This document shows positions 7,752 through 42,691 of a stretch of DNA of 64,000 nucleotides, piece by piece (the stretch's first letter is position 1; each line of letters begins with the position of its first letter). Made by a program: the position numbers and the translations under genes. This DNA is from Planomonospora venezuelensis (lineage in GTDB: Bacteria > Actinomycetota > Actinomycetes > Streptosporangiales > Streptosporangiaceae): NCBI RefSeq assembly GCF_014203605.1, contig NZ_JACHJJ010000017.1, positions 111,192 to 175,191 on the forward strand, written 5' to 3'. Under the pieces are notes generated by a model. The model had not been told where the DNA came from and ran no database searches. It worked only from the letters and a program-made list of their open reading frames with translations.

Positions 7752-9774
7752 GCCGCCGGTTCGGCCACCACATCCACCGCCCCGCGTCCAGAGTCAGGGC
7801 GGTGAGCAGGACCGAGCGGACCACGAAGGTGTCCAGCAGGACCCCGAAGGCGACGATGAACCCGAGCTCGGCCAGGACCACCAGGGGCAGCACCCCGAGG
7901 ACGGCGAAGGTCGCCGCGAGCACCACGCCCGCCGAGGTGATCACACCTCCGGTCGCGGAGAGCCCGATGACCGCGGCCCGGCGGGTGCCGTGGGTCACGG
8001 CCTCCTCCTGGATCCTGGTGATCAGGAAGATGTTGTAGTCGACACCGACCGCGACCAGGAAGACGAAGGCCAGCAGCGGTACCCCGGTGTCCACGGCGGC
8101 GAAGCCGAACACCTCCGTGAAGATCACACCGCTCACGCCCAGCGCCGCCGCGAAGGAGAGCACGACGGTGGCCATCAGCAGCAGCGGCGCGACCAGCGCG
8201 CGGAGCAGGATCACCAGGATCACGAAGACGACCGCCAGGATCAGCGGGACGACCACCCGCAGGTCGCGTTCGGAGGCCAGCTTCCCGTCCAGGTTGACCG
8301 CCGCGGCACCGCCGACCAGCGCGTCCGGGATCTCCCGCAGCCGCTCGACCGTCTCGTAGGCGGCGGGGCTGTCCGGCGCGTCCTTCAGCGCCCCGCGCAG
8401 CAGGACGCGGCCGTCCACGGTCTCCGGCTGCCCGCCGCCCGGCCGGCCGGCTCCCGCGCCCCGCTCCCCGATCCGGTCCACGCCCCGGTCGGCGGCCACC
8501 GCCGCGGCGACCCGGTCGGCCTGGCCTGCGGGGGCGAGCACCACCAGCGACCCCTCCTGCCCGGTGTCGAAGGCCCGGTCCAGGATCTCCGCGCCGCGCA
8601 CGGACTCCGGCGCGGTCCGGTAGGCGTCGGCGTCGGCCAGCGGGCCGACGGTCGTGAGCGGCAGCGTCAGCGCCATGGCGCCCAGGACCGCCGCCGTGCC
8701 GATCCAGACGATCCGGGGGCGGACGGCGACCGCCCGGCCGATCCGGTCCCACAGGCCGGAGCCGCTTCCCACCGCGCCGCCGTACACCGGGATCTTCGGC
8801 CAGAACACCCCGCGCGGGAAGACCACGAGCAGCGCGGGCAGCAGGGTCAGCATGGCGGCGAGCGCGCAGACGACGCCCACCGCGCAGACCGGGCCGAGAC
8901 CGCGGGTGGCGTTCTGGTCGGCCACCAGCAGGCAGCAGAGACCGGCCACCACGGTGGCGGCGCTCGCCGCGATCGCCGGGGTGGCCCGGCGCAGCGCGAC
9001 GGCCATCGCCTCGTGCCGGTCCTCGTGCACGGCCAGTTCCTCGCGGTAGCGGGCGACCAGCAGCAGCGCGTAGTCGGTGGCGATGCCGAACACCAGCACC
9101 AGCAGGATGCCGCCGCTCTGCCCGCTCACGGTCAGGCCGGCGTACTCGGCCAGCAGGTAGTTGCCCGCCCGCGAGCAGACCAGCGCCACACCCGCCGCGA
9201 AGAACGGGATCAGCCAGAGCAGCGGACTGCGGTAGGTGATGAGCAGCACCAGGACGACCACGGCGGAGGTCGCCGCCAGGAGGGTCGCGTCGATCGACCC
9301 GAAGACCTCGATCGCGTCGGCGCTCTGCCCCGCCGGGCCGGTCACCAGCGCCCGGTCCCCGGTGATCTCGCGGATCCGCTCGACCGCCGCGGTCAGCACG
9401 TCGTAGTCGCTCCCGTCGAGCGGCACGACCACCTGCACGGCCCCGCCGCCGGGGGCCGGGACCGGCGGCGGCACCTGGCCGGCGACGCCCTCCACCTCGG
9501 CGAACCGCTTCGCGTCGGCGGCCGCCTCCGCGACCGGCCGGCCCTCGTAGACCACGATCGCCGGGATCCGGTCACCGGCCGCGGAGCCGCGCTGCGCGTT
9601 CTGCACCACCGTGGACTCGGCCCCGGCGGGCAGGAACGACGACGGGTCGTTGCGCTGGACCTCCTCCAGTTTTCCGCCCAGCATCCCGGCCCCGGCGGCG
9701 ACCAGCAGCCAGACCGCCACCACCACCCAGGCGCCCACCCGCCCGCACACCGCGGCGCTCAACGATCGCCTCAT
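7627..9774 (-). CDS. MMPL-family (RND-superfamily) membrane transporter
   Basis: Two 6-TM bundles separated by large extracytoplasmic domains; about 715 aa from the ATG at 9774. The ORF extends to 9822. Confidence 0.8.
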   Translation of the reverse strand: MRRSLSAAVCGRVGAWVVVAVWLLVAAGAGMLGGKLEEVQRNDPSSFLPAGAESTVVQNAQRGSAAGDRIPAIVVYEGRPVAEAAADAKRFAEVEGVAGQVPPPVPAPGGGAVQVVVPLDGSDYDVLTAAVERIREITGDRALVTGPAGQSADAIEVFGSIDATLLAATSAVVVLVLLITYRSPLLWLIPFFAAGVALVCSRAGNYLLAEYAGLTVSGQSGGILLVLVFGIATDYALLLVARYREELAVHEDRHEAMAVALRRATPAIAASAATVVAGLCCLLVADQNATRGLGPVCAVGVVCALAAMLTLLPALLVVFPRGVFWPKIPVYGGAVGSGSGLWDRIGRAVAVRPRIVWIGTAAVLGAMALTLPLTTVGPLADADAYRTAPESVRGAEILDRAFDTGQEGSLVVLAPAGQADRVAAAVAADRGVDRIGERGAGAGRPGGGQPETVDGRVLLRGALKDAPDSPAAYETVERLREIPDALVGGAAAVNLDGKLASERDLRVVVPLILAVVFVILVILLRALVAPLLLMATVVLSFAAALGVSGVIFTEVFGFAAVDTGVPLLAFVFLVAVGVDYNIFLITRIQEEAVTHGTRRAAVIGLSATGGVITSAGVVLAATFAVLGVLPLVVLAELGFIVAFGVLLDTFVVRSVLLTALTLDAGRWMWWPNRRLTRERGCGDGEPRDTERGRSAPAPSPLPRPARHGGAGRPAR

Positions 9775-28974: not shown

Positions 28975-29745
28975 ATGATCACGCTCCGCTACGCCGCCGG
29001 TTCCGATGTCGGCAAGGTCCGCCAGGGCAACGAGGACGCCGCGTACGCCGGCGCCCGGCTGCTCGCCATCGCCGACGGGATGGGCGGGCACGTGGGCGGG
29101 GAGGTCGCCAGCTCGGCCGCGGTCGCCGCCGTGGCCCCCCTGGACCACGAGTGCCCCGCCGACCTGGCCGCCGCCGCCGAGGGCGGGGTCCGCCGGGCCA
29201 ACCAGCGCCTGCGCGAGCTCGTCGAGCAGGATCCGAGCCTGACCGGGATGGGCACCACGCTGACCCTGATGCTCTGGGACGGCCCGCGCTTCGCGCTGGC
29301 CCACATCGGCGACTCGCGCGCCTACCTGCTCCGCAACGGCGACCTCTACCAGATCACCTACGACCACACGCTCGTCCAGACCCTGATGGACGACGGGCGG
29401 ATCACCGCCGAGGAGGCCGCCCGGCACCCGCACCGGTCGATCCTCCTGCAGGTCCTGGACGGCAGCGAGAACATCGAGATCGACCTGTCCCTGCGGGACG
29501 CCGAGGTGGGCGACCGCTACCTGCTCTGCTCCGACGGCCTGTCCGGCGTGGTCGAGGCCGCGCAGCTCCGCGACGTGCTGGCCACGGTCGACGACCTCGG
29601 CGCCGCTGCCGGCAGGCTGATCGAGCTCGCCTGCGAGGGCGGCGGCCCGGACAACATCACCTGCGTCGTGGCCGACGTGGTCGACGAGCCCGGCGCGGTC
29701 CAGGACACCCCCGTGGTCGTCGGCTCGGCCGACCCCTCCTCCTGA
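28975..29745 (+). CDS. PP2C-family Ser/Thr protein phosphatase (Stp-like), paralog 1
   Basis: PP2C motifs LLAIADGMGGHVGGEVAS, GMGTTLT, AHIGDSRAY, CSDGL and GGPDNITCVV. Confidence 0.85.
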   Translation: MITLRYAAGSDVGKVRQGNEDAAYAGARLLAIADGMGGHVGGEVASSAAVAAVAPLDHECPADLAAAAEGGVRRANQRLRELVEQDPSLTGMGTTLTLMLWDGPRFALAHIGDSRAYLLRNGDLYQITYDHTLVQTLMDDGRITAEEAARHPHRSILLQVLDGSENIEIDLSLRDAEVGDRYLLCSDGLSGVVEAAQLRDVLATVDDLGAAAGRLIELACEGGGPDNITCVVADVVDEPGAVQDTPVVVGSADPSS

Positions 29746-29901: not shown

Positions 29902-29991
29902 GTGTACAAGGAATTCGCCATCGAAGTGGTCGTGTGGCTCATTCCCGTCGCCATCCTCATCGGCCTCGCCTACATGATCACTGCCACGTAG
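29902..29991 (+). CDS. Candidate 29-aa single-TM small protein (VYKEFAIEVVVWLIPVAILIGLAYMITAT)
   Basis: GTG start 4 nt after GGAGGGA, strong GC3 bias (25 of 29 codons end in G or C) and a hydrophobic helix. Too short for the ORF track. Confidence 0.35.
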   Translation: MYKEFAIEVVVWLIPVAILIGLAYMITAT

Positions 29992-30120
29992 GGTCCGCGA
30001 CGCCGCGGACGGCCGGGGAGGCGGGCCTCCCCGGCCTCTTCATCCCCCCGGTCCGTCCGGCCCCGCCCCCCGGCCGGTACGGCTCCGCGCTCCCGGCCTG
30101 CGCGGCCTGCGCCCCCGGCC

Positions 30121-30269
30121 TGCGCCGATCCCGGTAGAAGCACCCCCGAAAGAACGTTTCTTTAGATATCGGGAACTATCTTCTTTACTCGCGCTTTATC
30201 TATACAAAGCCAGGTACATGCGCTCGGGGGAGCGCGCTTCACCACGCCACAGGGGGATTCCACACGCCG
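30121..30269 (+). promoter_or_regulatory. AT-rich island with the near-palindrome GAAAGAACGTTTCTTTAG upstream of the nfeD-flotillin operon; candidate promoter and operator
   Basis: ..CCGAAAGAACGTTTCTTTAGATATCGGGAACTATCTTCTTTACTCGCGCTTTATCTATAC.. is strongly GC-depleted relative to its surroundings. Confidence 0.35.
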
Positions 30270-30884
30270 ATGGGCCGGTTCGTCGACGTCGCCTCAGCCT
30301 TTCCCACCGTCCTGTTCAGCTTTCCGCTCGTCGTGGTCGCCGCCTACTGGATCCTCGCCCTCTCCGGCGTGATCGGGCTCGACGGCGACGAGGCCGCCGG
30401 CGGCGCGGAGGCGACCGGCCTGGCCGGCCTCCTGGCGGGTCTCGGGCTCGGCGGCGTACCCGTCACCGTGACCGTCTCGCTGCTGGTCGTCATCGCGTGG
30501 TTCACCAGCCTCGCGGGCTCCACCCTGGTCACCGGGACCCCCGCCCTGACCGCCGTGCTCGTCGCCGCGCTCGCCTGCGCCTGGCTCGGTACCCGCCTGC
30601 TGACGCTGCCGCTGCGCCGCGCCGTACCGAAGGAGCGCGTCCCCTCCCGCGCCGACTTCGTGGGCCGCACGTGCGTCATCCGCACCGGCCGGGTGTCCGG
30701 GACCTTCGGCCAGGCCGAGGCCACCTCCGCCGACGGCTCCTCCGCCCTCATCCAAGTCCGGCAGACCGGTGACGAGACCTTCCTCGCCGGCGGCACCGCC
30801 CTGATCTTCGCCTACGACGACGACGGCGAATTCTTCTGGGTGACGCCCTACGACGCGGAACTCGACCCCGACCGTCCTCTCTAG
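30270..30884 (+). CDS. NfeD-like (YqiJ/YuaF-type) membrane protein with a C-terminal OB-fold
   Basis: Two or three N-terminal TM helices (VLFSFPLVVVAAYWILALSGVIGL; VTVSLLVVIAWFTSLAG; LTAVLVAALACAWLG), then a beta-rich soluble domain (FVGRTCVIRTGRVSGTFGQAEATSADGSSALIQVRQTG), directly upstream of a flotillin gene. Confidence 0.7.
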   Translation: MGRFVDVASAFPTVLFSFPLVVVAAYWILALSGVIGLDGDEAAGGAEATGLAGLLAGLGLGGVPVTVTVSLLVVIAWFTSLAGSTLVTGTPALTAVLVAALACAWLGTRLLTLPLRRAVPKERVPSRADFVGRTCVIRTGRVSGTFGQAEATSADGSSALIQVRQTGDETFLAGGTALIFAYDDDGEFFWVTPYDAELDPDRPL

Positions 30885-30895
30885 CGAAGGACCAC

Positions 30896-33106
30896 ATGGA
30901 CGTCATCTCCACCGGTTTCGGCATCCTGCTCGCGCTCGCCCTGCTCATCGCCGTCGCACTCGCGATCATGGTCAGCCGCCTGTTCAACAAGGTCGAACAG
31001 GGCAAGGCGCTCATCGTCTCCAAGATCAACAAGGTCGACGTCACCTTCACCGGAGCGATCGTGCTGCCCGTGCTGCACAAGGCGGAGGTCATGGACATCT
31101 CGGTGAAGACCATCGAGATCGAGCGGACCGGCCGCGAGGGGCTGATCTGCCGGGACAACATCCGCGCCGACATCCGGATCACCTTCTTCGTCCGGGTCAA
31201 CAAGACCGCCGAGGACGTCGTCAAGGTCGCCCAGGCCATCGGCACCGCCCGGGCCAGCGACTCCGAGACGCTGCAGGAGCTGTTCAACGCCAAGTTCTCC
31301 GAGGCGCTGAAGACCGTCGGCAAGCAGCTCGACTTCGTCGACCTCTACACCCAGCGCGACCGGTTCCGCGACCAGATCATCCAGGTCATCGGCACCGACC
31401 TGAACGGCTACAGCCTGGAGGACGCGGCGATCGACTACCTGGAGCAGACCTCGCTGCTCTCCCTTGACAAGAACAACATCCTCGACGCCCAGGGCATCCG
31501 GAAGATCACCGAGCTGACCGCGATCGAGCACGTGCGGACCAACGACTTCCAGCGGCGCGAGGAGAAGGAGATCACCCGCCAGAACGTGGACGCCCGCGAG
31601 GCGATCCTCGAACTGCAGCGACGCCAGGTCGACGCGGAGATCAAGCAGAAGCGCGAGATCGAGACCCTGCGGGCCCGCGAGGAGGCGGAGATCGCCCGGG
31701 TCCAGGCCGAGGAGCGGCTCAAGGCGCAGGCCGCCGACCTGCGCACCCAGGAGCAGCTCGGCATCCAGCAGGAGAATCAGGCCCGCGAGATCGCCGTGGC
31801 GGCCAAGAACCGCGAGCGGGTCATCGCCATCGAGAGCGAGCGCATCGAGAAGGACCGCATGCTGGAGGTCATCTCCCGCGAGCGCGAGACCGAGCTGTCG
31901 CGCATCTCCAAGGACAAGGAGGTCGAGGGCGAGAAGCGCTCGATCGCCGAAGTGGTCCGCGAGCGGATCGCGGTCGAGAAGACCGTCGCCGAGCAGGAGG
32001 AGAACATCAAGCGCCTGCGGGTGGTCGAGGAGGCCGAGCGGACCCGCCAAGCCGTGATCATCCAGGCCGAGGCCGAGGCCCAGGAGAACCTGGTCAAGGA
32101 CATCAAGGCCGCCGAGGCCGCCGAGGCGGCCTCCAAGCACAGGGCGCGCGAGGCGCTGGTGCTCGCCGAGTCGCGCCAGCAGGCCGCCGAGCTCGACGCC
32201 CGCGCCAAGATCCGGCTGGCCGAGGGCATCCAGGCCGAGGCCGCCGCGACCGGCCTGGCCGAGGTGCAGGTGGCCGAGCGCAACGCCGCCGCCATCGAGA
32301 AGGTCGGCCGGGCCGAGGCCGCGGTCGAGCGGGAGAAGGCACTGGCCGCCGCCGAGGGCGAGCAGGCCAGGGCGCACGCCGCCGCCACCGCGATCCGGGA
32401 GAGGCTCAAGGCCGAGGCCGAGGGCGAGCGGGAGAAGGCACTGGCCGAGGCCGCGCTGATCGGAGAGAGGCTGAAGGCCGAGGCCGAGGGCCTCACCGAG
32501 AAGGCCGCGGCGATGGCCGCGCTGGACGACGCGAGCCGCGGTCACGAGGAGTACCGCCTGCGGCTGGACGCCGAGAAGGAGATCCGCCTGGCCGGCGTCA
32601 CCTCCCAGGTCAAGCTCGCCGAGGCGCAGGCCGCGGTGCTCGCCGCCGGCCTGGAGAAGGCCAACATCGACATCGTCGGCGGCGACAGCGTGTTCTTCGA
32701 CCGGCTGGTCGGCGCGGTCACGATGGGCAAGGCCGTGGACGGCTTCGTGGAGGGCTCCGGGGTGGTCCGCACGCTCGCCGGGCCGTACCTGGACGGGTCG
32801 CAGAGCCTGCCCGCCGACCTCTCCCGGGCCCTCGGCTCGCTGGGCAGCGGCGACGTGCGGGACCTGTCGCTCTCGGCGCTGCTGGTCAGGCTGATGGGCG
32901 AGGGCGGCCCCGAGGGCGCCCGGCTGCGCGAGCTGCTCGGCACCGCGACGTCCGCGGGGACCTCCCCGGCGGCGTCCACGGCGGCGTCCACGGTGACCGC
33001 GACGGCCGTGGCCCCCGCCACAGTGACCCCCGCCGCCGCGGTCGTGACGGTCCCGGGCAACGCCGCCAACGGCCCCGCCCCGGTCCTCGACGCGGGCCGG
33101 GAGTGA
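30896..33106 (+). CDS. Flotillin-family SPFH/band-7 protein (FloT/YqiK-like)
   Basis: N-terminal TM, then SPFH domain (LIVSKINKVDVTFTGAIVLPV..DISVKTIEIERTGREGLICRDNIRADIRITFFVRVN), about 350 aa of E/A/R/K-rich coiled-coil and an Ala/Thr/Pro-rich tail; 736 aa. Confidence 0.85.
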   Translation: MDVISTGFGILLALALLIAVALAIMVSRLFNKVEQGKALIVSKINKVDVTFTGAIVLPVLHKAEVMDISVKTIEIERTGREGLICRDNIRADIRITFFVRVNKTAEDVVKVAQAIGTARASDSETLQELFNAKFSEALKTVGKQLDFVDLYTQRDRFRDQIIQVIGTDLNGYSLEDAAIDYLEQTSLLSLDKNNILDAQGIRKITELTAIEHVRTNDFQRREEKEITRQNVDAREAILELQRRQVDAEIKQKREIETLRAREEAEIARVQAEERLKAQAADLRTQEQLGIQQENQAREIAVAAKNRERVIAIESERIEKDRMLEVISRERETELSRISKDKEVEGEKRSIAEVVRERIAVEKTVAEQEENIKRLRVVEEAERTRQAVIIQAEAEAQENLVKDIKAAEAAEAASKHRAREALVLAESRQQAAELDARAKIRLAEGIQAEAAATGLAEVQVAERNAAAIEKVGRAEAAVEREKALAAAEGEQARAHAAATAIRERLKAEAEGEREKALAEAALIGERLKAEAEGLTEKAAAMAALDDASRGHEEYRLRLDAEKEIRLAGVTSQVKLAEAQAAVLAAGLEKANIDIVGGDSVFFDRLVGAVTMGKAVDGFVEGSGVVRTLAGPYLDGSQSLPADLSRALGSLGSGDVRDLSLSALLVRLMGEGGPEGARLRELLGTATSAGTSPAASTAASTVTATAVAPATVTPAAAVVTVPGNAANGPAPVLDAGRE

Positions 33107-36100
33107 CACCCGCGGTGACCCTCACCGAGACCACGAGCACGACGGAGCAGCCGCTGGACGCGGGCACCTACGAGGTGCTCCGCGCCCGGCTCGCCGAACA
33201 GGCCGCGGAGCTGGCCCGGCGGGCCGAGGCGCTCAACGCCCGGCGCCTGGACGTCTTCGGCGGGACCGAGCTCCGCCTGATCGGCACCGAGCGGATCCGC
33301 ACCGAGAACAACTGCGTGCCCCGCGACATCGTCTCCATCGGCGACCTGATGCTCTTCGGCTACAACGTGTTCATCGGGCTGAAGCCGGAGACCGCCGTCG
33401 ACGACGTCTTCTCCGTGCACCGGTTCAGCCGGGACGGCGACGCCGTCCGCTTCGACACCGATCCCGGCGCCGAGCGGCTCCTGCGCCATCCGCAGTTCGA
33501 GCGGGACTTCGCCGAGCTCTACCGGTACTACCGGCAGACCCGGCTGCTCCAGCTCCGCCGGGTCGAGGGCAGGCTGCTGGCCGTCTTCCGGACCGGCCCG
33601 CAGGACATCCGGGTCCTGCGCTGGCAGATCGGGGCGGACGGCTCGCTCGCCTACCTCGACGATCGCGGCGAGCGCGACCACGTCTTCCCCGCCTCGCACG
33701 ACTTCGAGTGGACCCGGACCACCCGCGACGACCACGTGCCCGGCCGCCACCCGCACATCTCGATCCAGGGCGAGGTGTTCGTCGAGACCGTCGGCGGCGA
33801 CCTCACCATCAAGGTCGAGAACAACACGGAGACCGGCGAGGGCGTCTACCGGGAGCCGGTCGACGAGCCGCTGCAGAGCCTCGCCGACGCCGAGGTGCTG
33901 CACGCCAGGGTCGGCCCGCTGATCCTGCTGCGCATCCGGCCCTACAACGAGACCGGATGGCGGCACCTGGTCTTCAACACCCGGACCAGGGACGTCGTAC
34001 GGCTGGACGGCATCGGCCAGGCCTGCCGCCGGCTCCCCGAGGACCAGGGGATCATCTTCCCCGGCGGCTACCACCTGTCCACCGGGGTGAGCAAGACCTT
34101 CGACACCGACGTCACCGGCCTGGAGTTCGAGCGGGTCGTCCGCTCGGCCAACGGCGAGGACGTGCTCTACGTGTTCCACGCGCGGGCCGACGGCCGGTCG
34201 CTGCTGCTGCCGTACAACGTGATCCGCAAGCAGGTCGCGACGCCGATCCCCTGCCACGGCTACTCGCTGTTCGACGACGGCACGCTGGTGGTGTTCCGGG
34301 CCACCTCGGAGGAGCCGGCCCGGGTGCACCCGATGCAGGTGTGGCAGACGCCGTACACCTCCGACGTCTACGCCGCCGCCCGGCCGGCGGGGACCGGGCC
34401 GCTGGAGCGGATCGGCAACGCGGAGCTGGTGCGCGGCATCTCCGACTGCCTCTCGGTGGCCCGCATGGTCGAGGAGACGGCGCCGTCGGCCTCCGTCTTC
34501 GAGGCTCTCATCGCGGCCTGCACCCGCGTGTTCGACCACTACCACTGGCTGGGCGACCACGACCTGCGCGGGCCGGTGACCGAGGTCAGGGCGACCGCCG
34601 AGCAGGTGCTCGACGAGTTCGAGAAGGTCCGCTCGCTCACCGGCCAGGCCGCGGAGGCGCTGGAGGCCGCCGCCGGGGAGATCGCCTCCCTCATCCGACG
34701 GTCGCACGGCGAGCCGGCCCGCTCCGCCGCCGAGTGGGTCACCCGGATCTCCGAGCTCCGCCGGGCCCAGGGGCACCTGGCGGGCCTCCGCGAGCTGCGC
34801 TACGCCGACACCGGCCGGATCGACCGGCTGGACGCCGAACTGACGGCGGAGCTCGGCACCGCGGCACGGCGTGCGACCGGCTTCCTGCAGGGCGCGGACG
34901 CCTTCACCGGCTACCGCTCCGAGGTCGAGACGCTGGCCGCGGAGGCCGGGACCGCCGCCACCACGGCCGAGGCGGCGGGAGTCGCCGAGCGCCTGGCCGT
35001 GCAGGCCCGGGGCCTGGAGGTCGTGATCGAGGTGGTCGGCACACTCGACATCGCCGACGCGGGAGCGCGCACCGCGGTCCTGGAGCGGATCGGCGAGGTC
35101 CTCGGCGGGGTCAACCGGGCCCGGGCCGCCCTGGACGCGCGCCGGCGCGAGCTGCTGGCGACCGAGGGACGCGCCGCCTTCGCCGCCGAGTTCGCCCTGC
35201 TGGGGCAGGCGATCACCGGCGCCCTGGCCATGGCCGACACCCCCGACCGGTGCGACGAGCAGCTCGGCCGGCTGATGCTGCAGCTGGAGAACCTGGAGTC
35301 GCGCTTCGCCGAGTTCGACGACTTCCTCACCCAGCTGGGCACCAGGCGCGAGGACGTCTACGAGGCGTTCTCCTCCCGGCGGCAGGCGCTGCTGGACGAG
35401 CGTGCCCGCCGGGCCGACCGGCTGGCCGGCTCGGCGGACCGGATCCTCCTCGGCGTGCGGCGCCGGGCGGCCTCGTTCGGCTCGGCGGACGAGGTCAACA
35501 CCTACTTCGCCTCCGACCCGATGGTGGCCAAGCTGCACGCGGTCGCCGGGGAACTGCGCGAGCTGGGCGAAGCGGTCCGCGCCGAGGAGCTGGAGGGGTG
35601 GATCAAGTCCGCCCGCCAGGAGGCCGGGCGCGCCCTGCGCGACCGCCTCGACCTCTACGGCGACGGCGGCGGGACCATCCGGCTGGGCCGGCACCGGTTC
35701 GCGGTCAACACCCAGGCCGCCGACCTGACGCTGGTCCCGCACGAGGACCGGATGGTGTTCGCCGTCACCGGGACCGACTACCGCTCCCCCGTCGGCGATC
35801 CCGCGTTCGAGGCGAGCCGGCCGTTCTGGTCCCAGCTGCTGGTCTCGGAGTCGCCGGAGGTCTACCGGGGCGAGTACCTGGCCGCCTCCATCCTGGCCTC
35901 GGCCGAGGCGGGGGCTCCGGCCGCGGACGGCTCCCCCCTCTCGCTCGACGCGCTGCACGAGGCGGCGGTGGCGGAGGGCGGACTGCTCGCGATCGTCCGC
36001 CGGGTCGCGGAGAGCCGCTACGACGAGGGCTACGAGCGGGGCGTGCACGACCACGACGCCGCCGCGATCCTGGAGGTCCTGCTCCGCCTGCACTCCGGCG

Positions 36101-38103
36101 CCGGGCTGCTCCGCTATCCGCCGGACGCCCGGGCGGCGGCCCAGCTCTTCTGGGCCTTCGGGACCGGCGAGGCCGAGCGGGCGTCCTGGACCACCAGGGC
36201 GGTCTCGCTCGCGCGGGCCCGCTCCCGGTTCGGCCGCGTGGCCGCGGTGGACGAGATCCGCCGCGACCTCGGCTCCGCCGTCGCGGCGTTCCTGTCCACC
36301 CTGTCGGCACCGTCCCTACCGTCCGCGCCGTCCGTACCCTCTGCGCCGTCCGTACCCTCTGCGCCGTCCGCGCCGGATGGCGCGGACGTCTCCGGGATCG
36401 CCGGGGAGTACCTGTTCGAGGAGCTCGCGGGGGCTCCTGCCGGATTCGTGACGAGCTCCGGCGCCCGGGGGCTGCTGGAGCGCTTCGGCCGGGCGCTGGG
36501 CGCCGCGCGCGCGGAGTTCGAGGACGACCTGCGCGCCCTGGCCGGCGACCTGCCGGCCCGCAGGCGGCTGGCCGAGGCGTGGCTGGGGGCGTTCGAACGC
36601 GCACCCGAGCTGCCGGAGGCGGTGGCCGTGCTCCTGTGCGAGCTGCCCCGCTACGACTCCTCTGCGGCGCTGGGCGCGACCGCCGAGGGCCTGCTCGGCG
36701 CGCATCCGCGCGTCACCGGCCGGAGCCTGGCGGTGCGGCTGGACGAGTTCCTCGCCAGGACCCGGCGGTTCGGGACCGAGCGCGTGCCCGCCTACCGGGA
36801 CTACCTGCGGCGGCGCAACGAGCTGGTCGCCGCGGAGCGCGAGCGGCTGCGGCTGGAGGAGTACCGGCCGAAGGTGATGAGCGCCTTCGTCCGCAACCAG
36901 CTGCTCGACGAGGTCTACCTGCCGCTCATCGGCGACAACCTGGCCAAGCAGCTGGGCGCGAGCGGCGACGCCAGGCGGACCGACCAGATGGGCCTGCTGC
37001 TGCTCGTCTCCCCGCCCGGCTACGGCAAGACGACCCTGATGGAGTACGTCGCGAGCCGTCTCGGCCTGGTCTTCGTGAAGGTCGACGGTCCGGCCCTCGG
37101 CCGCCTCGTCACCTCGCTGGACCCGGCCGAGGCCCCCGACGCGACCTCGCGCCAGGAGGTCGAGAAGATCAACTTCGCCCTGGAGATGGGCAACAACGTC
37201 CTGCTCTACCTCGACGACATCCAGCACACCTCCCCCGAGCTGCTGCAGAAGTTCATCTCGCTCTGCGACGCCCAGCGCCGGATGGAGGGGGTCAGGGACG
37301 GCCGGAGCCGCACCTACGACCTGCGCGGCAAGCGCTTCGCGGTCTGCATGGCGGGCAACCCGTACACGGAGTCGGGCGGCCGGTTCCGCATCCCCGACAT
37401 GCTCGCCAACCGGGCCGACGTCTGGAACCTCGGCGACGTACTCTCAGGCAGGGAGGAGGTGTTCGCACTGAGTTACGTCGACAACGCGCTCACCGCCAAC
37501 CCCGTCCTCGCCCCGCTCTCCACCCGGGACCGCGACGACGTCCGCCTGCTCGTACGGCTGGCGCAGGGCGACCCCGCCGTCCGCGCCGACCGGCTCTCCC
37601 ACCCCTACTCGCCGGTCGAGCTGGAGCAGGTCCTCGCGGTCCTGCGCAAGCTGCTCCGCGTCCAGCGGGTGGTGCTGGCCGTCAACCAGGCCTACATCGC
37701 CTCGGCCGCCCGGTCCGACGGCTCCCGGACGGAACCGCCGTTCCAGCTCCAGGGGTCCTACCGGAACATGGCCAAGCTCGCCGCGCGGATCGTCCCCGTG
37801 ATGAACGACGCCGAACTGGAGGCGGTCATCGACGACCACTATCTCGCCGAAGCCCAGACCCTCGCCTCCGGCGCCGAGGCCAGCCTCCTGAAGCTGGCCG
37901 AGCTGCGGGGGACGCTCACCGCCGCGCAGGCCGCGCGGTGGGCCGAGGTCAAGGCCGCCTACGTGCGCTCGGCGGCGCTCGGCGGCACGGAGGACGACCC
38001 GGTGACCCGGGCCGTCGGCGCCGTCGGGCTGCTCGCCGACCGGGTCAGCACCGCCATCGGGCAGGCCGCCGACCGGCTCGCGCCGGAAGGGCCGCGCCGG
38101 TGA
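33103..38103 (+). CDS. Giant (1,666-aa) cytoplasmic protein with a C-terminal AAA+/P-loop ATPase module
   Basis: GTGA overlap with the flotillin stop. N-terminal about 450 aa beta-rich, central about 800 aa helical. C-terminal Walker A LLLVSPPGYGKTTLMEY (about 37021-37038), Walker B NNVLLYLDDIQH, sensor-like FAVCMAGNPYTESGG; no TM segments. Confidence 0.75.
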   Translation: MTPAVTLTETTSTTEQPLDAGTYEVLRARLAEQAAELARRAEALNARRLDVFGGTELRLIGTERIRTENNCVPRDIVSIGDLMLFGYNVFIGLKPETAVDDVFSVHRFSRDGDAVRFDTDPGAERLLRHPQFERDFAELYRYYRQTRLLQLRRVEGRLLAVFRTGPQDIRVLRWQIGADGSLAYLDDRGERDHVFPASHDFEWTRTTRDDHVPGRHPHISIQGEVFVETVGGDLTIKVENNTETGEGVYREPVDEPLQSLADAEVLHARVGPLILLRIRPYNETGWRHLVFNTRTRDVVRLDGIGQACRRLPEDQGIIFPGGYHLSTGVSKTFDTDVTGLEFERVVRSANGEDVLYVFHARADGRSLLLPYNVIRKQVATPIPCHGYSLFDDGTLVVFRATSEEPARVHPMQVWQTPYTSDVYAAARPAGTGPLERIGNAELVRGISDCLSVARMVEETAPSASVFEALIAACTRVFDHYHWLGDHDLRGPVTEVRATAEQVLDEFEKVRSLTGQAAEALEAAAGEIASLIRRSHGEPARSAAEWVTRISELRRAQGHLAGLRELRYADTGRIDRLDAELTAELGTAARRATGFLQGADAFTGYRSEVETLAAEAGTAATTAEAAGVAERLAVQARGLEVVIEVVGTLDIADAGARTAVLERIGEVLGGVNRARAALDARRRELLATEGRAAFAAEFALLGQAITGALAMADTPDRCDEQLGRLMLQLENLESRFAEFDDFLTQLGTRREDVYEAFSSRRQALLDERARRADRLAGSADRILLGVRRRAASFGSADEVNTYFASDPMVAKLHAVAGELRELGEAVRAEELEGWIKSARQEAGRALRDRLDLYGDGGGTIRLGRHRFAVNTQAADLTLVPHEDRMVFAVTGTDYRSPVGDPAFEASRPFWSQLLVSESPEVYRGEYLAASILASAEAGAPAADGSPLSLDALHEAAVAEGGLLAIVRRVAESRYDEGYERGVHDHDAAAILEVLLRLHSGAGLLRYPPDARAAAQLFWAFGTGEAERASWTTRAVSLARARSRFGRVAAVDEIRRDLGSAVAAFLSTLSAPSLPSAPSVPSAPSVPSAPSAPDGADVSGIAGEYLFEELAGAPAGFVTSSGARGLLERFGRALGAARAEFEDDLRALAGDLPARRRLAEAWLGAFERAPELPEAVAVLLCELPRYDSSAALGATAEGLLGAHPRVTGRSLAVRLDEFLARTRRFGTERVPAYRDYLRRRNELVAAERERLRLEEYRPKVMSAFVRNQLLDEVYLPLIGDNLAKQLGASGDARRTDQMGLLLLVSPPGYGKTTLMEYVASRLGLVFVKVDGPALGRLVTSLDPAEAPDATSRQEVEKINFALEMGNNVLLYLDDIQHTSPELLQKFISLCDAQRRMEGVRDGRSRTYDLRGKRFAVCMAGNPYTESGGRFRIPDMLANRADVWNLGDVLSGREEVFALSYVDNALTANPVLAPLSTRDRDDVRLLVRLAQGDPAVRADRLSHPYSPVELEQVLAVLRKLLRVQRVVLAVNQAYIASAARSDGSRTEPPFQLQGSYRNMAKLAARIVPVMNDAELEAVIDDHYLAEAQTLASGAEASLLKLAELRGTLTAAQAARWAEVKAAYVRSAALGGTEDDPVTRAVGAVGLLADRVSTAIGQAADRLAPEGPRR

Positions 38104-38915
38104 CGGCCGGACGGGTCGGCGGCGCGGTCCTGTCCGCGATCCTCGCCGGGGCCGTCCTCTCGGGCGCCCCCGGCACCGCCGGGACCGCCCGCGCCGCGGC
38201 GGGCTACCCGGTCGGGAACGCTCCCGTGCTCACCCACAACCCGCTCTACGGCAGGAGCGTCTTCACGCAGGTCGCGTGCGAGGAGCCGGCGGCCGGGAAG
38301 GGCGGCGCGGCCTCCGCCAGGCGCTACACGCTCGCGGTCGTGAAGTGCCTCGACCGGGTCTGGTCCACCGAGCTGCGCAGGCGGAACCTGCCGTTCCGCA
38401 GGCCGGTGGTCAGGTTCGTCTCCACGAGGAGCCGCGTGTGCGGGGAGAAGTGGCCGAAGGAGACGATCGCGCTCTACTGCAGGGCCGAGCGGAGCCTGAA
38501 CTTCCCCGTCGGCTCCGGCCTGCTCGACAACGATTCGGACCTGTTCCTGCTGATCGTGGCCGCCCACGAGTACGCCCACCACGTGCAGAACCTCTCCGGG
38601 ATCATGAAGGGCAACGACGGGCTGGCCTACCGGAACAAGAAGGAGCTGAACGAGCAGGCCCGCAGGCAGGAACTGCAGGCCGAGTGTCTGGCCGGGGCCT
38701 TCGCCGGCTCCGTCTGGACGTCGCTGGCGCGCACCGCGGCCGACTGGCGGCTGCTCCTGAGGAGCCAGAAGGCGACGGGCGACGACTCCGGCGGGCGCGG
38801 CGTCCGCGACCACGGGAAGGGATCGAGCATCGTCTACTGGACGAACCGCGGATTCAGGGCGGCCTCGTCGTCGGCGTGCAACACCTGGACCGCCGCGTCC
38901 GCCCGGGTGTCCTGA
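38100..38915 (+). CDS. YpfJ-type putative neutral zinc metallopeptidase, secreted or membrane-anchored
   Basis: GTGA overlap with the upstream stop. N-terminal signal/anchor (AVLSAILAGAVLSGAPGTAGTARA) and the HExxH-type motif LLIVAAHEYAHHVQN characteristic of the YpfJ family. Confidence 0.7.
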   Translation: MTAGRVGGAVLSAILAGAVLSGAPGTAGTARAAAGYPVGNAPVLTHNPLYGRSVFTQVACEEPAAGKGGAASARRYTLAVVKCLDRVWSTELRRRNLPFRRPVVRFVSTRSRVCGEKWPKETIALYCRAERSLNFPVGSGLLDNDSDLFLLIVAAHEYAHHVQNLSGIMKGNDGLAYRNKKELNEQARRQELQAECLAGAFAGSVWTSLARTAADWRLLLRSQKATGDDSGGRGVRDHGKGSSIVYWTNRGFRAASSSACNTWTAASARVS

Positions 38916-38949
38916 CCGGAGGTCCTCCCGGGCGGCGGCCCGGCCGGGC

Positions 38950-39747
38950 TCAGGGTGTCAGCCGCCGCTCGGTCGCGGCCCCCACGACGAACCTCTCGGC
39001 GCCGGCCGGGTAGGGCCCGAAGTCGGCCACGACGCAGGTGATGTTGTCCGGGCCGCCGCCGCGGTTGGCCAGGTCGATGAGCCGGTGGGCGGTCTCGCCA
39101 GGGTCGTCGACCTCGGTGAGGATGGTGAAGAGGGTCTCCGGGCCGACCACGGCGGTCAGGCCGTCGGAGCAGACGAGGTAGCGGTCGCCCGGCTGGGCCT
39201 CGCGAAGCGTCAGGTCGAGCTCGCCGTCGCCGGTGCCCTCCAGCACCCGCAGGACCATCGAGCGGCGCGGGTGCTCGGCCGCCTGCTCGGGGGTGATCCG
39301 CCCGTCGTCGACCAGCGACTGGACCAGGGTGTGGTCGTGGGTGATCTGGTAGAGGGCGCCGTCGCGCAGCATGTAGGCGCGGGAGTCGCCGACGTGGGCC
39401 AGGGCGAACATGTCGCCGTCCCAGAGCAGGGCGGTGAGGGTGGTGCCCATCCCGCGCAGCGCGGGCTCCTGCTCGCTCATCTCGCGGATCATGCGGTTGA
39501 CGTCTCTGGCCACGGTTTTCAGCGCCGCCTTGAGATCGGCGCCGGTCTCCGGAAGGCTTTCGTCCAGCGCCGCCACGGCGGTGACCGCGAGCGAGCTGGC
39601 GATCTCCCCGCCGGCGTGGCCGCCCATGCCGTCGGCGATGGCGAGCAGGCGCGCGCTCGCGTAGCCGGAGTCCTCGTTGGACTCGCGACGGACTCCGACG
39701 TCGGAGCGGGCGGCGTAGCGCAGGGCCGGTCCTTCGTTTTGTGCCAT
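38950..39747 (-). CDS. PP2C-family Ser/Thr protein phosphatase, paralog 2
   Basis: LLAIADGMGGHAGGEIASS, GMGTTLTALLWDG, AHVGDSRAY, CSDGL, GGPDNITCVV; about 60% identical to 28975..29745. Start at the internal ATG (MAQNEGPALRY). Confidence 0.85.
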   Translation of the reverse strand: MAQNEGPALRYAARSDVGVRRESNEDSGYASARLLAIADGMGGHAGGEIASSLAVTAVAALDESLPETGADLKAALKTVARDVNRMIREMSEQEPALRGMGTTLTALLWDGDMFALAHVGDSRAYMLRDGALYQITHDHTLVQSLVDDGRITPEQAAEHPRRSMVLRVLEGTGDGELDLTLREAQPGDRYLVCSDGLTAVVGPETLFTILTEVDDPGETAHRLIDLANRGGGPDNITCVVADFGPYPAGAERFVVGAATERRLTP

Positions 39748-39831
39748 GAAGGCAGTAAAGCACTGGTTGAAGCACTTCACAAGCAAATCTCTTGTAGACC
39801 ATTTCAGCACAGTCAACTACTGTGGGCCGGT
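39748..39831. promoter_or_regulatory. GC-poor divergent promoter region between the PP2C paralog 2 gene and the HTH-methyltransferase-like gene
   Basis: ..GGCAGTAAAGCACTGGTTGAAGCACTTCACAAGCAAATCTCTTGTAGACCATTTCAGCACAGTCAACTACTG.. Confidence 0.35.
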
Positions 39832-41772
39832 ATGGAGGAGAGCCAGGAGATCACCGTGAACGCGGGCGACATCGCCCGGTTCGCCGATGTGGGCCGGGCG
39901 GCGGTGAGCAACTGGCGCCGCCGCCACGAGGACTTCCCCCAGCCCGTCGGCGGAACCGCCTCCAGCCCGCTCTTCTCCCTGTCCGAGGTCACCGCCTGGC
40001 TGCGGGGCAACGGCAAGTCCTTCGAGGTCTCCCTGGGCGACCTGGTCTGGCAGCGGATGCGGACCACCGTCGACGACCTGCGCCTGGGCGAGCTGGTCGG
40101 CCGGGTCGGCGCCTTCCTGCTGTTCCTGCACCGCGACCCCGGAGGCTGGCGCGAGCACGGCACGCGGTCGTTGTCCGGCGATCCCGGCGCGCGCCCCCTC
40201 GCCGAGCTGGTGGCCGACGCCACGCCCGACCTGCCGGGTCCGCCCGGGTTCCGGCTGGAGGACCGCACGCTGATCCGGCTGGTCGCCCGGCTCGCCGCCG
40301 AGAACGGCCCGCTGGCCGCGTTCGAGTTCCTCTGCGCACGCTACGTGGAGGCCCACTCCCGGCAGCTCTCGGTCACCAGGGACGACGTGGCCGCGCTCAT
40401 GGCCCGGCTGACCGGCGGACACCTCCGGGACGGCGGGGGCCCCGTGCTCGACCCGGCCTGCGGGGTCGGCACCCTGCTCCTGCACGCCGCCGCCCCGCTC
40501 GGCCAGGAGCTCAGCGAGACGAACGCCCTGCTCACCGCGGTACGGCTGCTGCTGCGCGGGACGCGCGCCCGGATCGTGGCCGGCGACTCGCTCCGCGAGG
40601 ACGGCCTGGCCGGCGAGCTCGCCGCCGCGGTGGTCTGCGACCCGCCGTTCAACGAGCGGGCCTGGGGCTACGAGGACCTGGCCGGAGACCCCCGCTGGGA
40701 GTACGGCCTGCCGCCGCGCGGCGAGCCGGAGCTCGCCTGGGTGCAGCACTGCCTGGCCCACGTGCGGCCGGGCGGCCTGGTGGCGATCCTGATGCCCGCC
40801 GCGGCGGCCAGCCGGCGCCCCGGCAAGCGGATCCGGGGCAACCTGCTGCGGGCCGGGGCGCTGCGGGCCGTGATCGCCCTGGCCCCCGGCGGGCCGGACC
40901 TGTGGCTGCTGCGCCGCCCGGACGGCGGTCGGCCCCCGTCGCAGCTGCTGATGGTGGACGCGAGCGAGGACCTGTCGATCGTGGAGTCGGCCTGGCGCGC
41001 CTACACGGCCGACCCCGAGGCCGAACCGCCGGGCGAGAGCCGTACGGTGCGGATCATCGACCTGCTCGACGACGAGGTCGACCTCGCGCCGGGGCGGCAC
41101 CGCCCGCAGCAGGGCGGGATGGACTTCGCCCGCGACCTCACCGGCGCGCTGGACCGCTTCAGGGAGGTCTCGGCCGCGCTGCCGGACGCGCCTCCCGCGC
41201 TGGAGACGCTCGCCGAGCGGCAGGAGCTGCCCACCACGACCGTCGGCGAGCTGGTCAGGGCGGGCCTGGTCACGATCCTGCAGGCCCCGCCCAAGATGAC
41301 CGCCGGCTCAGGACCCGTCCCGGTCCTGACCGCCGAGGACGCCGCCGCGGGCGCCGAGCCCTCGGGAGGGACGGTCTTCGACCCGGCGCTGGTCATGGTC
41401 AGGCCGGACGACGTCGTGGCCACCGCGCTGGGCGCGGTCCGGGTCGTCGAGCACTCCGGCGCGGCGCTCGGGCCGCAGCTCACGCTCTACCGCGTCGACC
41501 CCGAACGGCTCGACCCCCACTTCCTGGCCGGGTTCCTCCGCTCCGCCGAGGCCTCCCGCGTCCATCCCAGCTCCAGCCGGCTCGACGTGCGGCGGGCCCG
41601 CGTGCCGGTGCTGCCCGTGGCCGAGCAGCGGCGGTACGGCGCCGCCTTCCGCGAGCTGACCGCGCTGGAGGACAGATTGCGTGAGACGGCGGCACTGGGA
41701 GAGACCTTGATCCGGCTAGGCTTTGACGGACTGGTCGACGGTCATCTGAGACCGTGCGACCAACGGGTGTAG
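39832..41772 (+). CDS. HTH-domain protein fused to an N6-adenine (gamma-class, HsdM-like) methyltransferase-like domain; orphan, no restriction partner in the window
   Basis: N-terminal HTH (ITVNAGDIARFADVGRAAVSNWRRRH), SAM motif I VLDPACGVGTLLLHAA and motif IV VVCDPPFNERAWGY (DPPF). 646 aa with a long C-terminal domain of unknown function. Confidence 0.65.
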   Translation: MEESQEITVNAGDIARFADVGRAAVSNWRRRHEDFPQPVGGTASSPLFSLSEVTAWLRGNGKSFEVSLGDLVWQRMRTTVDDLRLGELVGRVGAFLLFLHRDPGGWREHGTRSLSGDPGARPLAELVADATPDLPGPPGFRLEDRTLIRLVARLAAENGPLAAFEFLCARYVEAHSRQLSVTRDDVAALMARLTGGHLRDGGGPVLDPACGVGTLLLHAAAPLGQELSETNALLTAVRLLLRGTRARIVAGDSLREDGLAGELAAAVVCDPPFNERAWGYEDLAGDPRWEYGLPPRGEPELAWVQHCLAHVRPGGLVAILMPAAAASRRPGKRIRGNLLRAGALRAVIALAPGGPDLWLLRRPDGGRPPSQLLMVDASEDLSIVESAWRAYTADPEAEPPGESRTVRIIDLLDDEVDLAPGRHRPQQGGMDFARDLTGALDRFREVSAALPDAPPALETLAERQELPTTTVGELVRAGLVTILQAPPKMTAGSGPVPVLTAEDAAAGAEPSGGTVFDPALVMVRPDDVVATALGAVRVVEHSGAALGPQLTLYRVDPERLDPHFLAGFLRSAEASRVHPSSSRLDVRRARVPVLPVAEQRRYGAAFRELTALEDRLRETAALGETLIRLGFDGLVDGHLRPCDQRV

Positions 41773-41797: not shown

Positions 41798-42691
41798 ATG
41801 GTCATCGGCGACCGCTACGTGCTCGACGACCTTCCCCTGGGGCAGGGCGGGATGGGGGCGGTCTACGCCGGTCACGACAGGCACCTCGACCGCAGGGTGG
41901 CGGTCAAGTTCCTGCGCCTGCTCACCGGGCCCGACGAGGAGCTGAAGCGGCGTTTCCTGCGCGAGGCCCGCATCCTGGCCAAGCTGGAGCACCCCGGCGC
42001 CCCGGTCCTGTACGACTTCGGCACCTTCGAGCAGCGGCTGTTCCAGGTGATGCAGTTCATCGAGGGCGTCACCGTGGCCGACCTGGTCAGCGAGCACGGC
42101 CCGCTCCCGGTCCCGTGGGCCGCCGCGATCGCCGCCCAGGCCTGCGCGGTGCTCTCGGCCGCGCACACGCTCTCCATCTACCACCGCGACCTCAAGCCGA
42201 CCAACCTGATGCTCTGCCCGGACGGCAGCGTCAAGGTCCTGGACTTCGGCCTGGCAATGCTCCGCGAGGCCGACTCCACCCAGTTCACCCGGATCGGCCA
42301 GATCCTCGGCACCCCGTCCTACATGGCCCCCGAGCAGATCCAGCGCGGCCTGGCCGGTCCGCGCAGCGACCTGTACGCGCTGGGCTGCGTGATCCACGAG
42401 ATGCTGACGGGCGAGCAGCTGTTCACCGGCCCCACCGAGTACGTCGTGTTCGAGCGCCAGGTCAAGGAGCTCCCGCCCCCGGTCCCCGGCATCCCCGACG
42501 GCTTGAACCGCCTCCTCGCCGAGCTGCTGGAGAAGGACCCCGACCGGCGCCCGGCCGGCGCCGACGCCCTCTACGAGCGGCTGCAGCCCTTCGCCGTGGA
42601 CCTGCCCATGCTCCCCGGTTTCCTCACCCCGCCCTCGGTCCCCAGTCCCGGCCGGATGTACGCCCGCGTCCTCGGCCGCATCCTGGCCTGA
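41798..42691 (+). CDS. Hanks-type Ser/Thr protein kinase, kinase domain only, cytoplasmic
   Basis: LGQGGMGAVYAG..VAVKFL (G-loop and VAIK-like), catalytic loop HRDLKPTNLM, DFG, APE (SYMAPEQ); 297 aa, no TM or sensor domain; 25 nt after the upstream gene. Confidence 0.85.
   Translation: MVIGDRYVLDDLPLGQGGMGAVYAGHDRHLDRRVAVKFLRLLTGPDEELKRRFLREARILAKLEHPGAPVLYDFGTFEQRLFQVMQFIEGVTVADLVSEHGPLPVPWAAAIAAQACAVLSAAHTLSIYHRDLKPTNLMLCPDGSVKVLDFGLAMLREADSTQFTRIGQILGTPSYMAPEQIQRGLAGPRSDLYALGCVIHEMLTGEQLFTGPTEYVVFERQVKELPPPVPGIPDGLNRLLAELLEKDPDRRPAGADALYERLQPFAVDLPMLPGFLTPPSVPSPGRMYARVLGRILA

Follow-up and report, generated by a model that had tools for sequence, protein, structure and literature searches.

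The locus at positions 30270–38915 of a 64,000-nucleotide stretch of the Planomonospora venezuelensis genome (contig NZ_JACHJJ010000017.1, positions 111,192–175,191; this whole stretch is referred to below as the window) is a member of a widespread and vertically stable module. Its invariant core consists of a gene for a YqiK-like flotillin followed by a gene for a very large AAA+ ATPase of the DUF3686 family, and a gene for a small protein with three transmembrane (TM) segments is usually found ahead of both. The genes for flotillin and ATPase are tightly linked and share one orientation, and the module as such is strongly conserved and genuine. An earlier reading of this DNA, made from the letters alone (the sequence-only reading), had presented the locus as a translationally coupled operon of four genes, the last of which encodes a YpfJ-type peptidase. 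The linkage of flotillin and ATPase survived comparison with other genomes (80 of 80 loci), while the peptidase gene, encountered in none of about 88 other loci, fell out of the conserved unit; the conserved module comprises two or three genes and not four. The arrangement itself has already been noted in the literature (PMC11237479), where we found no experimental study of it.

Gene organization of the locus

Four ORFs (open reading frames) of the forward strand were confirmed:

30270–30884 (+): membrane protein of 204 aa with three TM segments, NfeD/YqiJ-like by position and topology.
30896–33106 (+): YqiK-like flotillin of 736 aa, assigned by BLASTP, Band_7 and profile comparison.
33103–38103 (+): soluble AAA+ ATPase of the DUF3686 family, 1666 aa, with the PGAP name “DNA repair ATPase”.
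38100–38915 (+): YpfJ-like neutral Zn metallopeptidase of 271 aa with an N-terminal signal or anchor segment at residues 6–24.

Since the G+C content of third codon positions (GC3) is 0.94–0.98 in all four ORFs, which fits a genome with 70% GC, they should be considered as real genes; GC3 of the neighbouring PP2C gene is alike. The TAG codon that terminates the first gene (30882–30884) is separated by an 11-nt gap from the ATG codon of the flotillin gene at position 30896, and the stop codons of the flotillin and ATPase genes overlap the next start within GTGA tetranucleotides at 33103–33106 and 38100–38103, respectively. In one public annotation the ATPase starts from an alternative in-frame GTG at position 33115, 9 nt past the flotillin stop. 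The motifs GYGKTT, LLYLDD, FAVCMAGNPYTESGG and HEYAHH were all found in the window proteins, so that ORFs, gap, both overlaps and motifs proved to be exactly as the sequence-only reading had reported them. Hydrophobic segments are distributed as three in the 204-aa protein, one N-terminal TM segment in the flotillin, one N-terminal segment in the peptidase and none in the ATPase. Two P. venezuelensis assemblies match the window, and its flotillin has 100% identity with the protein annotated in P. venezuelensis as “flotillin family protein”.

Distribution and neighbourhood of the flotillin–ATPase pair

Homologs of the ATPase fall into at least 6,783 clusters at 90% identity. Among the representatives of 50%-identity clusters, 1,385 matched the N-terminal 1,200 aa of the ATPase, and full-length relatives with 1,600–1,900 aa occur at identities as low as 27%. 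Members of the family are present in many actinomycete genera, in Alteromonadaceae, Pseudoalteromonas, Reinekea, Methylomarinum and Myxococcota, and are named in databases either “DNA repair ATPase” or “MoxR-like ATPase”. A scan with one genome per species yielded more than 579 confirmed ATPase loci among the matches listed. Over approximately 1,650 aa the identity amounts to 60–88% within actinomycetes and 45–55% across phyla.

Gene context was compared in a set of 84 loci with a homolog of the giant ATPase; upstream DNA longer than 3 kb was available for 80 of them, which come from about 25 actinomycete genera, from Myxococcus and from three metagenome-assembled genomes. In every one of these 80 loci the ATPase gene is immediately preceded, on the same strand, by a gene for a YqiK-like flotillin. 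If strict criteria are applied the number becomes 79, one locus (L032) failing solely due to alignment overshoot. Thus, ATPase homologs encoded apart from flotillin, the finding that the sequence-only reading had named as contradicting its proposal, were not encountered. The same arrangement was observed in four further loci belonging to Pseudoalteromonas, Methylomarinum, P. parontospora and Planobispora takensis. Moreover, the identities of flotillin and ATPase to their window copies co-vary across loci (r=0.79). A 3-TM gene precedes the flotillin gene in 68–70 of the 80 loci.

Coupling through a GTGA overlap, which had been expected to tie the genes together, is real in the window and the flotillin–ATPase overlap of 4 nt is common in non-Streptomyces actinomycetes, but it is not general: in most Streptomyces and non-actinobacterial loci the two genes are separated by a gap, mostly of about 20–260 nt and reaching about 420 nt in one case. 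All-against-all clustering of the ORFs of the 84 loci, with a GC3 filter applied, revealed no other gene conserved across lineages beside the pair, and recurrent neighbours are lineage-specific.

Two peculiarities of gene context may be mentioned here. The Streptomyces loci that have no 3-TM gene are L046, L054, L055, L059, L061, L062, L071, L075, L076, L081, L083 and L087. In eight of the eleven inspected among them the flotillin gene is adjoined by a divergent gene for a PucR-type regulator (GGDEF_2 and HTH_30 domains, about 355 aa), located approximately 1–1.7 kb upstream of the flotillin gene; members of this regulator family, a candidate for local control, occur in about 26 loci overall. 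The other peculiarity belongs to the Methylomarinum vadi locus (L089), where the flotillin gene is separated from that of the ATPase by a gene (positions 8243–8791 of that locus) for a 182-aa protein with two TFIIB-type zinc ribbons. It is the only gene seen to interrupt the pair.

Domain composition of the giant ATPase

The C-terminal AAA+-like module had been considered in the sequence-only reading as the only recognisable part of this protein. The Pfam scan gave a richer picture, as DUF3686 and DUF7902 were also found:

33208–34545 (+), residues 36–481: DUF3686 region, an N-terminal helix followed by an all-beta propeller-like domain (Pfam PF12458, E=4e-225).
34399–36852 (+), residues ~433–1250: helical middle region with long helices and three-helix spectrin-like bundles; a small beta element is at residues 875–896.
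34897–35151 (+), residues 599–683: DUF7902, within the helical middle region (Pfam PF25472, E=4e-28).
36886–37782 (+), residues ~1262–1560: AAA+ module (alignment, AlphaFold2, Foldseek, Pfam AAA_5/AAA_22/AAA).
37018–37035 (+), residues 1306–1311: Walker A motif GYGKTT.
37213–37218 (+), D1371–D1372: Walker B motif.

That the C-terminal part is an AAA+-like ATPase was confirmed by several means. Pfam models AAA_5, AAA_22 and AAA matched it at residues 1295–1425, all of them weakly, while AAA_3 gave no match in the Pfam scan of the window protein. The AlphaFold2 model of residues 1150–1666, with a pLDDT (predicted local distance difference test) value of 83.6, has a clear AAA+ fold, with a beta-hairpin ahead of the sensor-1 strand, and the best Foldseek matches of the module were MoxR-type NorQ and CbbQ, then RuvB and MCM (E~1e-6, TM-score up to 0.56). 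Walker A, the two aspartates of Walker B, the sensor-1 residue N1419, R1437 and R1554 are invariant in an alignment of 18 sequences extending down to 30% identity. By analogy with other AAA+ proteins, R1437 and R1554 are candidates for the arginine finger and sensor 2. Since the catalytic motifs are invariant down to such a low identity, the protein very probably is an active ATPase.

The N-terminal part is less easy to classify. An AlphaFold2 model of residues 1–1200 (pLDDT 77.9), built, as the previous one, from a 43-sequence alignment of actinobacterial, gammaproteobacterial and myxobacterial proteins, contains a helix at residues 22–52, about 30 strands in an all-beta domain (71–398), long helices (433–852), a small beta element and then further bundles of helices as far as about residue 1180. 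Foldseek compared it with propeller proteins of the PDB, with or without helical domains, at E=8e-6 to 1e-2; among them were IFT-A subunits, Elp1, clathrin heavy chain and the propellers of tricorn and prolyl oligopeptidase. The models therefore speak for a likeness in architecture, propeller plus spectrin-like bundles, and not for homology. The structural check proposed along with the sequence-only reading gave a clear answer for the AAA+ fold and an architecture-level one for the propeller and bundle region. A “protocoatomer-like” origin suggested by the matches to IFT-A, Elp1 and clathrin was considered and rejected, as TM-scores are below 0.1 and the helices look long and coiled-coil or spectrin-like rather than solenoidal. 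No solved structure of the family was found by a profile search against PDB sequences, which returned P-loop matches only, and the topology scan detected neither TM segments nor a signal peptide.

In one metagenomic protein of 1345 aa (P0321), a secreted NfeD1b_N (ClpP-like) domain seems to be fused to DUF3686. The linking stretch of 240 residues appears to be read out of frame, so the fusion is probably a gene-calling artefact. If it is real, a long-form NfeD gene would lie immediately upstream of that for the ATPase, and a flotillin gene could not fit in between.

Flotillin and its small membrane partner

The 736-aa protein has a TM segment at residues 8–26, an SPFH/Band_7 domain at 32–175, an E/A/R-rich coiled coil at about 215–590, then a family-specific segment and a low-complexity A/T/P/S tail at the C-terminus. 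When taken at full length it gave no match in Pfam, NCBIfam or PDB sequence searches, which is an effect of composition bias, because the N-terminal 250 aa scanned alone do match Band_7 (E=7.7e-11, 42.8 bits with a cut-off of 23.6). BLASTP aligned the protein with E. coli YqiK at 28% identity over 463 aa (E=1e-36). Comparison of the family profile with YqiK by hhalign gave 99.8% probability for residues 5–444 against 10–420 and ended before the Flot domain of YqiK. The TM segment, SPFH domain and long coiled coil that had been read from the sequence are therefore all there. In the Pseudoalteromonas ortholog the Flot domain is recognised only at E=0.003.

The 204-aa protein encoded ahead of the flotillin has TM segments at about residues 13–31, 58–76 and 86–111 and a soluble C-terminal domain of about 90 aa with a conserved FGQAE; according to the alignment, three TM segments and a small C-terminal domain are conserved across its family. 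It was taken for an NfeD/YqiJ-like protein, and its position, size and topology do fit this assignment. At the level of sequence the assignment lacks such clarity: Pfam gave no match at E<=10, NfeD, YqiJ_N and YqiJ_OB included, while E. coli YqiJ matches both YqiJ models. No BLAST similarity to YqiJ and no PDB match were obtained. Alignment of the 3-TM family with E. coli YqiJ by hhalign gave a weak result (E~0.003, probability 10–12%), colinear from the second TM segment to the C-terminal domain and with FGQ in common. Thus, the protein may be called NfeD/YqiJ-like according to its position, size and topology, its resemblance to YqiJ in sequence being weak.

Relation to described operons and known systems

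The sequence-only reading had held that such an arrangement was not known to be described. This did not stand up to a literature search. Ravi et al. 2024 (mSystems, PMC11237479; bioRxiv 2020) reported operons that combine YqiJ/YuaF, a band-7/flotillin protein and a “novel AAA+ ATPase with coiled-coil and beta-propeller”. In some lineages CesT/Tir and PspA are joined to these three genes, the 3TM protein of which is prototyped by YqiJ and YuaF, and abbreviated operons without PspA are widely distributed (PMC11237479). The supplementary table of the same paper lists for Dokdonia the order CesT_Tir, YqiJ-YuaF, Band-7 with coiled coil and flotillin, and beta-propeller with coiled coil and AAA-ATPase. 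A role in sub-membrane dynamics was proposed there in one paragraph of comparative genomics, without experiments. The gene order in Methylomarinum vadi is DUF2170, PspA_IM30, a 125-aa protein, a 202-aa protein, Band_7, the zinc-ribbon protein and DUF3686. Since a DUF2170 (CesT/Tir-like) gene and PspA precede the triad in this locus, the ATPase described in PMC11237479 can be identified with the DUF3686 family. The window shares with the published operon the same three genes, their order and the architecture of the ATPase (beta-propeller, coiled coil and AAA+), but represents its “abbreviated” form, having neither PspA nor CesT/Tir within 64 kb and carrying a species-specific peptidase gene in addition. 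No PspA or CesT/Tir genes adjoining the triad were found in four non-actinobacterial loci that were searched. The literature search returned nothing on a “DNA repair ATPase” in connection with flotillin and no experimental work on the flotillin–ATPase module; a Streptomyces StlP paper and a 2009 paper on SPFH evolution make no mention of the ATPase.

The pairs yqiJ–yqiK of E. coli and yuaF–floT of B. subtilis resemble the first two genes of the locus, as a small multi-TM gene is closely followed by a flotillin gene, and YqiK can be aligned with the window flotillin over the TM, SPFH and coiled-coil regions. Unlike the window, E. coli has no ATPase gene after yqiK. The proteins differ as well: YqiK possesses a Flot domain (E=6e-41), which is not detectable in the window flotillin, and the 204-aa protein matches neither YqiJ_N nor YqiJ_OB.

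SPFH scaffolds repeatedly pair with AAA+ machines, as HflK/C does with FtsH, prohibitin with the m-AAA protease and erlin with p97. In all these cases an SPFH scaffold is coupled to an AAA+ machine at the membrane, which offers a functional analogy. The window ATPase, however, has no protease domain and no TM segment and instead has, besides a propeller, helical bundles that extend over about 800 aa, so that its homology with FtsH is limited to the AAA+ fold. Proteins of the MoxR family (NorQ, CbbQ, RavA) provide the best structural matches to the AAA+ module, and some homologs are even named “MoxR-like ATPase”. This similarity is nevertheless confined to the fold: there is no Pfam AAA_3 match, no gene for a VWA-domain partner occurs among the examined neighbours of the ATPase, and MoxR proteins have about 300–500 aa, whereas the window ATPase has an N-terminal extension of about 1,250 aa. 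Finally, Vps4 with ESCRT-III and PspF with PspA come to mind, as in some lineages the ATPase is linked to PspA of the ESCRT-III superfamily, and remodelling of a polymer at the membrane is a possible role. On the other side, no MIT domain was found in the window ATPase, PspA is unlinked in actinomycetes, and the constant partner is flotillin.

Possible role of the module

Linkage of the two genes in 80 of 80 loci and co-variation of their products (r=0.79) make it reasonable to assume that the ATPase works together with the flotillin scaffold. The explanation that we slightly favour is an ATP-driven remodeller acting on this scaffold at the membrane's cytoplasmic side. According to this scheme flotillin, anchored by its N-terminal TM segment, would oligomerise via the SPFH domain and the long coiled coil and build a large assembly on the cytoplasmic face, which the NfeD/YqiJ-like partner might stabilise. 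The cytoplasmic ATPase would form hexamers through its MoxR/RuvB-like AAA+ module and dock on the flotillin assembly by means of the propeller and the spectrin-like arm; propellers and long helical bundles typically serve for docking or as scaffolds. ATP would then be spent to assemble, disassemble or reshape the scaffold, or to extract client proteins from it, and this remodelling may serve membrane maintenance or envelope-stress repair. Versions of the operon linked with PspA in other phyla fit such a remodeller.

Several observations weigh against this scheme. The 3-TM gene is missing in 12 Streptomyces loci, therefore the 3-TM partner is not essential to the pair. Neither PspA nor DUF2170 homologs were found in the 64-kb window or in the 84 loci, which makes the link to envelope stress indirect for actinomycetes. 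The Flot domain (PF15975) was not detected in the window flotillin, taken whole or in pieces, at E<=1, and this flotillin may therefore not assemble as canonical flotillins do. Whole-model TM-scores of the propeller and helical Foldseek matches, on which the idea of docking elements partly leans, are below 0.1. Lastly, the literature search found no paper naming DUF3686 or PF12458.

A bolder version of the remodelling scheme, in which the DUF3686 protein is dedicated to a distinct flotillin subfamily, gripping the coat with its propeller and spectrin-like arm while the MoxR/RuvB-like ring builds it up, takes it apart or extracts clients, would define a new class of SPFH–AAA+ machines. We put it forward tentatively and regard it as rather doubtful at present. 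If true, many bacterial flotillins would be regulated, energy-consuming membrane coats and not passive scaffolds. The role of bacterial flotillins is debated, and their deletions often give weak phenotypes. It is therefore of value in itself that the genes of one large flotillin subfamily are invariably accompanied by that of a very large and strongly conserved ATPase, the clear catalytic residues of which can be mutated, giving an experimental handle on flotillins.

The main rival to the remodelling scheme is recruitment. In this case flotillin, together with the 3-TM partner, would merely tether the ATPase at membrane domains, while the enzyme acts on some other substrate. Examples could be misfolded membrane proteins, a complex for secretion or for the cell wall, or PspA/ESCRT-III-like polymers whose genes lie elsewhere. 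Specific client complexes are remodelled by AAA+ proteins of MoxR type, NorQ and CbbQ among them, and these two are the best matches to the AAA+ fold; linkage of the triad with PspA and a CesT/Tir-like protein in Methylomarinum and Dokdonia points in the same direction. No client gene, however, is conserved beside the pair in the 84 loci, where the recurrent neighbours, such as the PucR-type regulator of Streptomyces, are confined to single lineages, and the VWA partner typical of MoxR systems is absent among neighbours. Strict 1:1 linkage and co-variation fit flotillin better as a direct partner or substrate of the ATPase. On this balance recruitment seems unlikely.

The locus could also be imagined as an anti-phage or conflict system, where a membrane sensor/effector pair with a large NTPase would bring about abortive infection through membrane disruption. 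Large multi-domain ATPases accompanied by membrane proteins are common in defence systems, an N6-methyltransferase gene is located 1.7 kb downstream in the window, and weak similarity was registered to IetA and mad8 in PADLOC (E ~0.003–0.07) and to IteA in NCBIfam (E=0.083). However, the PADLOC matches span just 30–70 residues at the P-loop, which is far under family level, and for the four window proteins PADLOC gave no match to a defence system, all similarities being of this P-loop kind with E>=0.0027. The locus is syntenic across a bacterial family, and in Pseudoalteromonas its surroundings near oriC are housekeeping genes; it is not flanked by genes of mobile elements, and conservation as high as 60–88% in actinomycetes and 45–55% across phyla is unusual for defence genes. 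A defence function is accordingly judged improbable.

Even less credit can be given to a motor of RuvB or MCM type acting on DNA, perhaps tethered to the membrane, in spite of the names given to this family. “DNA repair ATPase” of PGAP and “ATPase involved in DNA repair” of Pfam are carried by thousands of proteins, RuvB_N and RuvB match weakly at the P-loop, and RuvB and MCM are among the Foldseek matches. The RuvB sequence matches, however, are restricted to about 45 residues near Walker A, with scores of 20 bits and cut-offs of 280–300, and no DNA-binding domain was found in the ATPase by Pfam, AlphaFold2 or Foldseek. No DNA-repair gene belongs to the conserved neighbours, the obligate partner is a membrane scaffold, and the search returned no supporting paper. 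The label “DNA repair” is an inherited annotation that neither the domains nor the gene context nor the literature searched support; being misleading in thousands of genome annotations, it is not to be trusted.

The peptidase gene and the species-specific insertion

The least probable of all is a four-gene machine, where the flotillin-bound ATPase is coupled to an extracytoplasmic peptidase of YpfJ type; as a general system it is already refuted by the distribution of the peptidase gene. The protein itself is what had been expected of it, a secreted HExxH metallopeptidase, as it matches Pfam Zn_peptidase (PF04228, E=6e-16, 59.1 bits with a cut-off of 23.2) and has HEYAH and an N-terminal hydrophobic segment. 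Its score against the NCBIfam YpfJ equivalog model is well under the cut-off (68.3 versus 250 bits), so by sequence it should be regarded as a member of the PF04228 family and not as a YpfJ equivalog. Two features are essential here:

38565–38582 (+): HEYAHH of the peptidase, residues 156–161 (HEYAH, 156–160).
38088–38943 (no strand assigned): insertion of ~856 bp with the peptidase gene, for which blastn against P. parontospora and Planobispora takensis found no counterpart.

A YpfJ-type peptidase gene is absent at all 84 loci and at the four further ones (L088–L091), those of P. parontospora and Planobispora takensis included, and is absent also in Streptosporangium sp. “caverna”. In P. parontospora and Planobispora takensis the gene order is the same as in the window: PP2C, the triad, a convergent PP2C, N6-methyltransferase and Ser/Thr kinase. 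The insertion separates the 3′ end of the ATPase gene from the convergent gene for PP2C, its flanks align at 80–90% identity, and the last few ATPase codons were altered by it, a few being added at the C-terminus. Thus, the peptidase gene is an add-on found in P. venezuelensis only and not a component of the conserved module. The second GTGA overlap (38100) is then a by-product of the recent insertion, and the four-gene look of the locus is an accident of the same event. The expected proteolytic output outside the membrane, which was to be coupled to the ATPase, did not hold, given that even congeneric and fully syntenic loci do without this gene. Within P. venezuelensis, however, GTGA overlap and the lack of a terminator-like site between the two genes (in a scan that was uninformative overall) make co-transcription likely, and the peptidase gene may well be co-transcribed with that of the ATPase.

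Upstream region and flanking genes

In the vicinity of the operon the following features were registered:

30171–30269 (+): conserved upstream block (alignment with four Streptosporangiaceae genomes) with motifs GGGAAC (30171–30176), TTTACT (30184–30189), CTTTAT (30194–30199) and a TATACA/TATATAG-like element (30201–30208).
30250–30258 (+): Shine-Dalgarno-like CAGGGGGAT within this block.
29902–29991 (+): unannotated ORF of 29 aa, VYKEFAIEVVVWLIPVAILIGLAYMITAT, between the upstream PP2C gene and the operon.
30011–30036: perfect 11-bp GC-rich hairpin GGCCGGGGAGG-CGGG-CCTCCCCGGCC, 20 nt past the stop codon of the 29-aa ORF, without a T-run.
28975–29745 (+) and 38950–39780 (−): two PP2C phosphatase genes flanking the operon.
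39832–41772 (+): gene with an N6-methyltransferase domain, downstream of the operon.
41798–42691 (+): Ser/Thr kinase gene, downstream of the operon.

Judging from its conservation, the block at 30171–30269 probably comprises the promoter and leader of the operon. The same series of motifs precedes the first gene in Nonomuraea and Streptosporangium loci, and other families have different upstream motifs. No match to the sigma-70 consensus was found in the upstream region, the scan for sigma-70 promoters and terminators being uninformative, and Rfam gave nothing credible there. A near-palindrome at 30148–30165, singled out in the sequence-only reading as a feature ahead of the operon, was dropped as a possible operator: it is not conserved in the four related genomes, and the conserved block lies just downstream of it.

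A different element was noticed in Micromonosporaceae. Eight loci (L002, L016, L020, L025, L030, L036, L038 and L043) have in common TTGAC-N7-8-GTGTCA(C/T)GATCA, located 60–100 nt upstream of the first gene. Its -35-like hexamer also forms an inverted repeat (TGACA...TGTCA), and the element, which differs from the motif of Streptosporangiaceae, may act as an operator that overlaps the promoter.

At the site equivalent to that of the 29-aa ORF, P. parontospora, Planobispora takensis and a pair of Streptosporangium genomes encode almost the same peptide (MYKEFAIEAIVWLIPVVIL.GLAYMIT..), and the DNA differences are mostly synonymous or conservative; the ORF probably encodes a real micro-protein with a single TM segment. 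The hairpin behind it may end the upstream transcription unit, making the flotillin operon a separate one. The order of PP2C, methyltransferase and kinase genes is kept in Planomonospora, Planobispora and Streptosporangium and not outside the family, and can be viewed as family-level synteny or, possibly, as a trace of local phospho-regulation.

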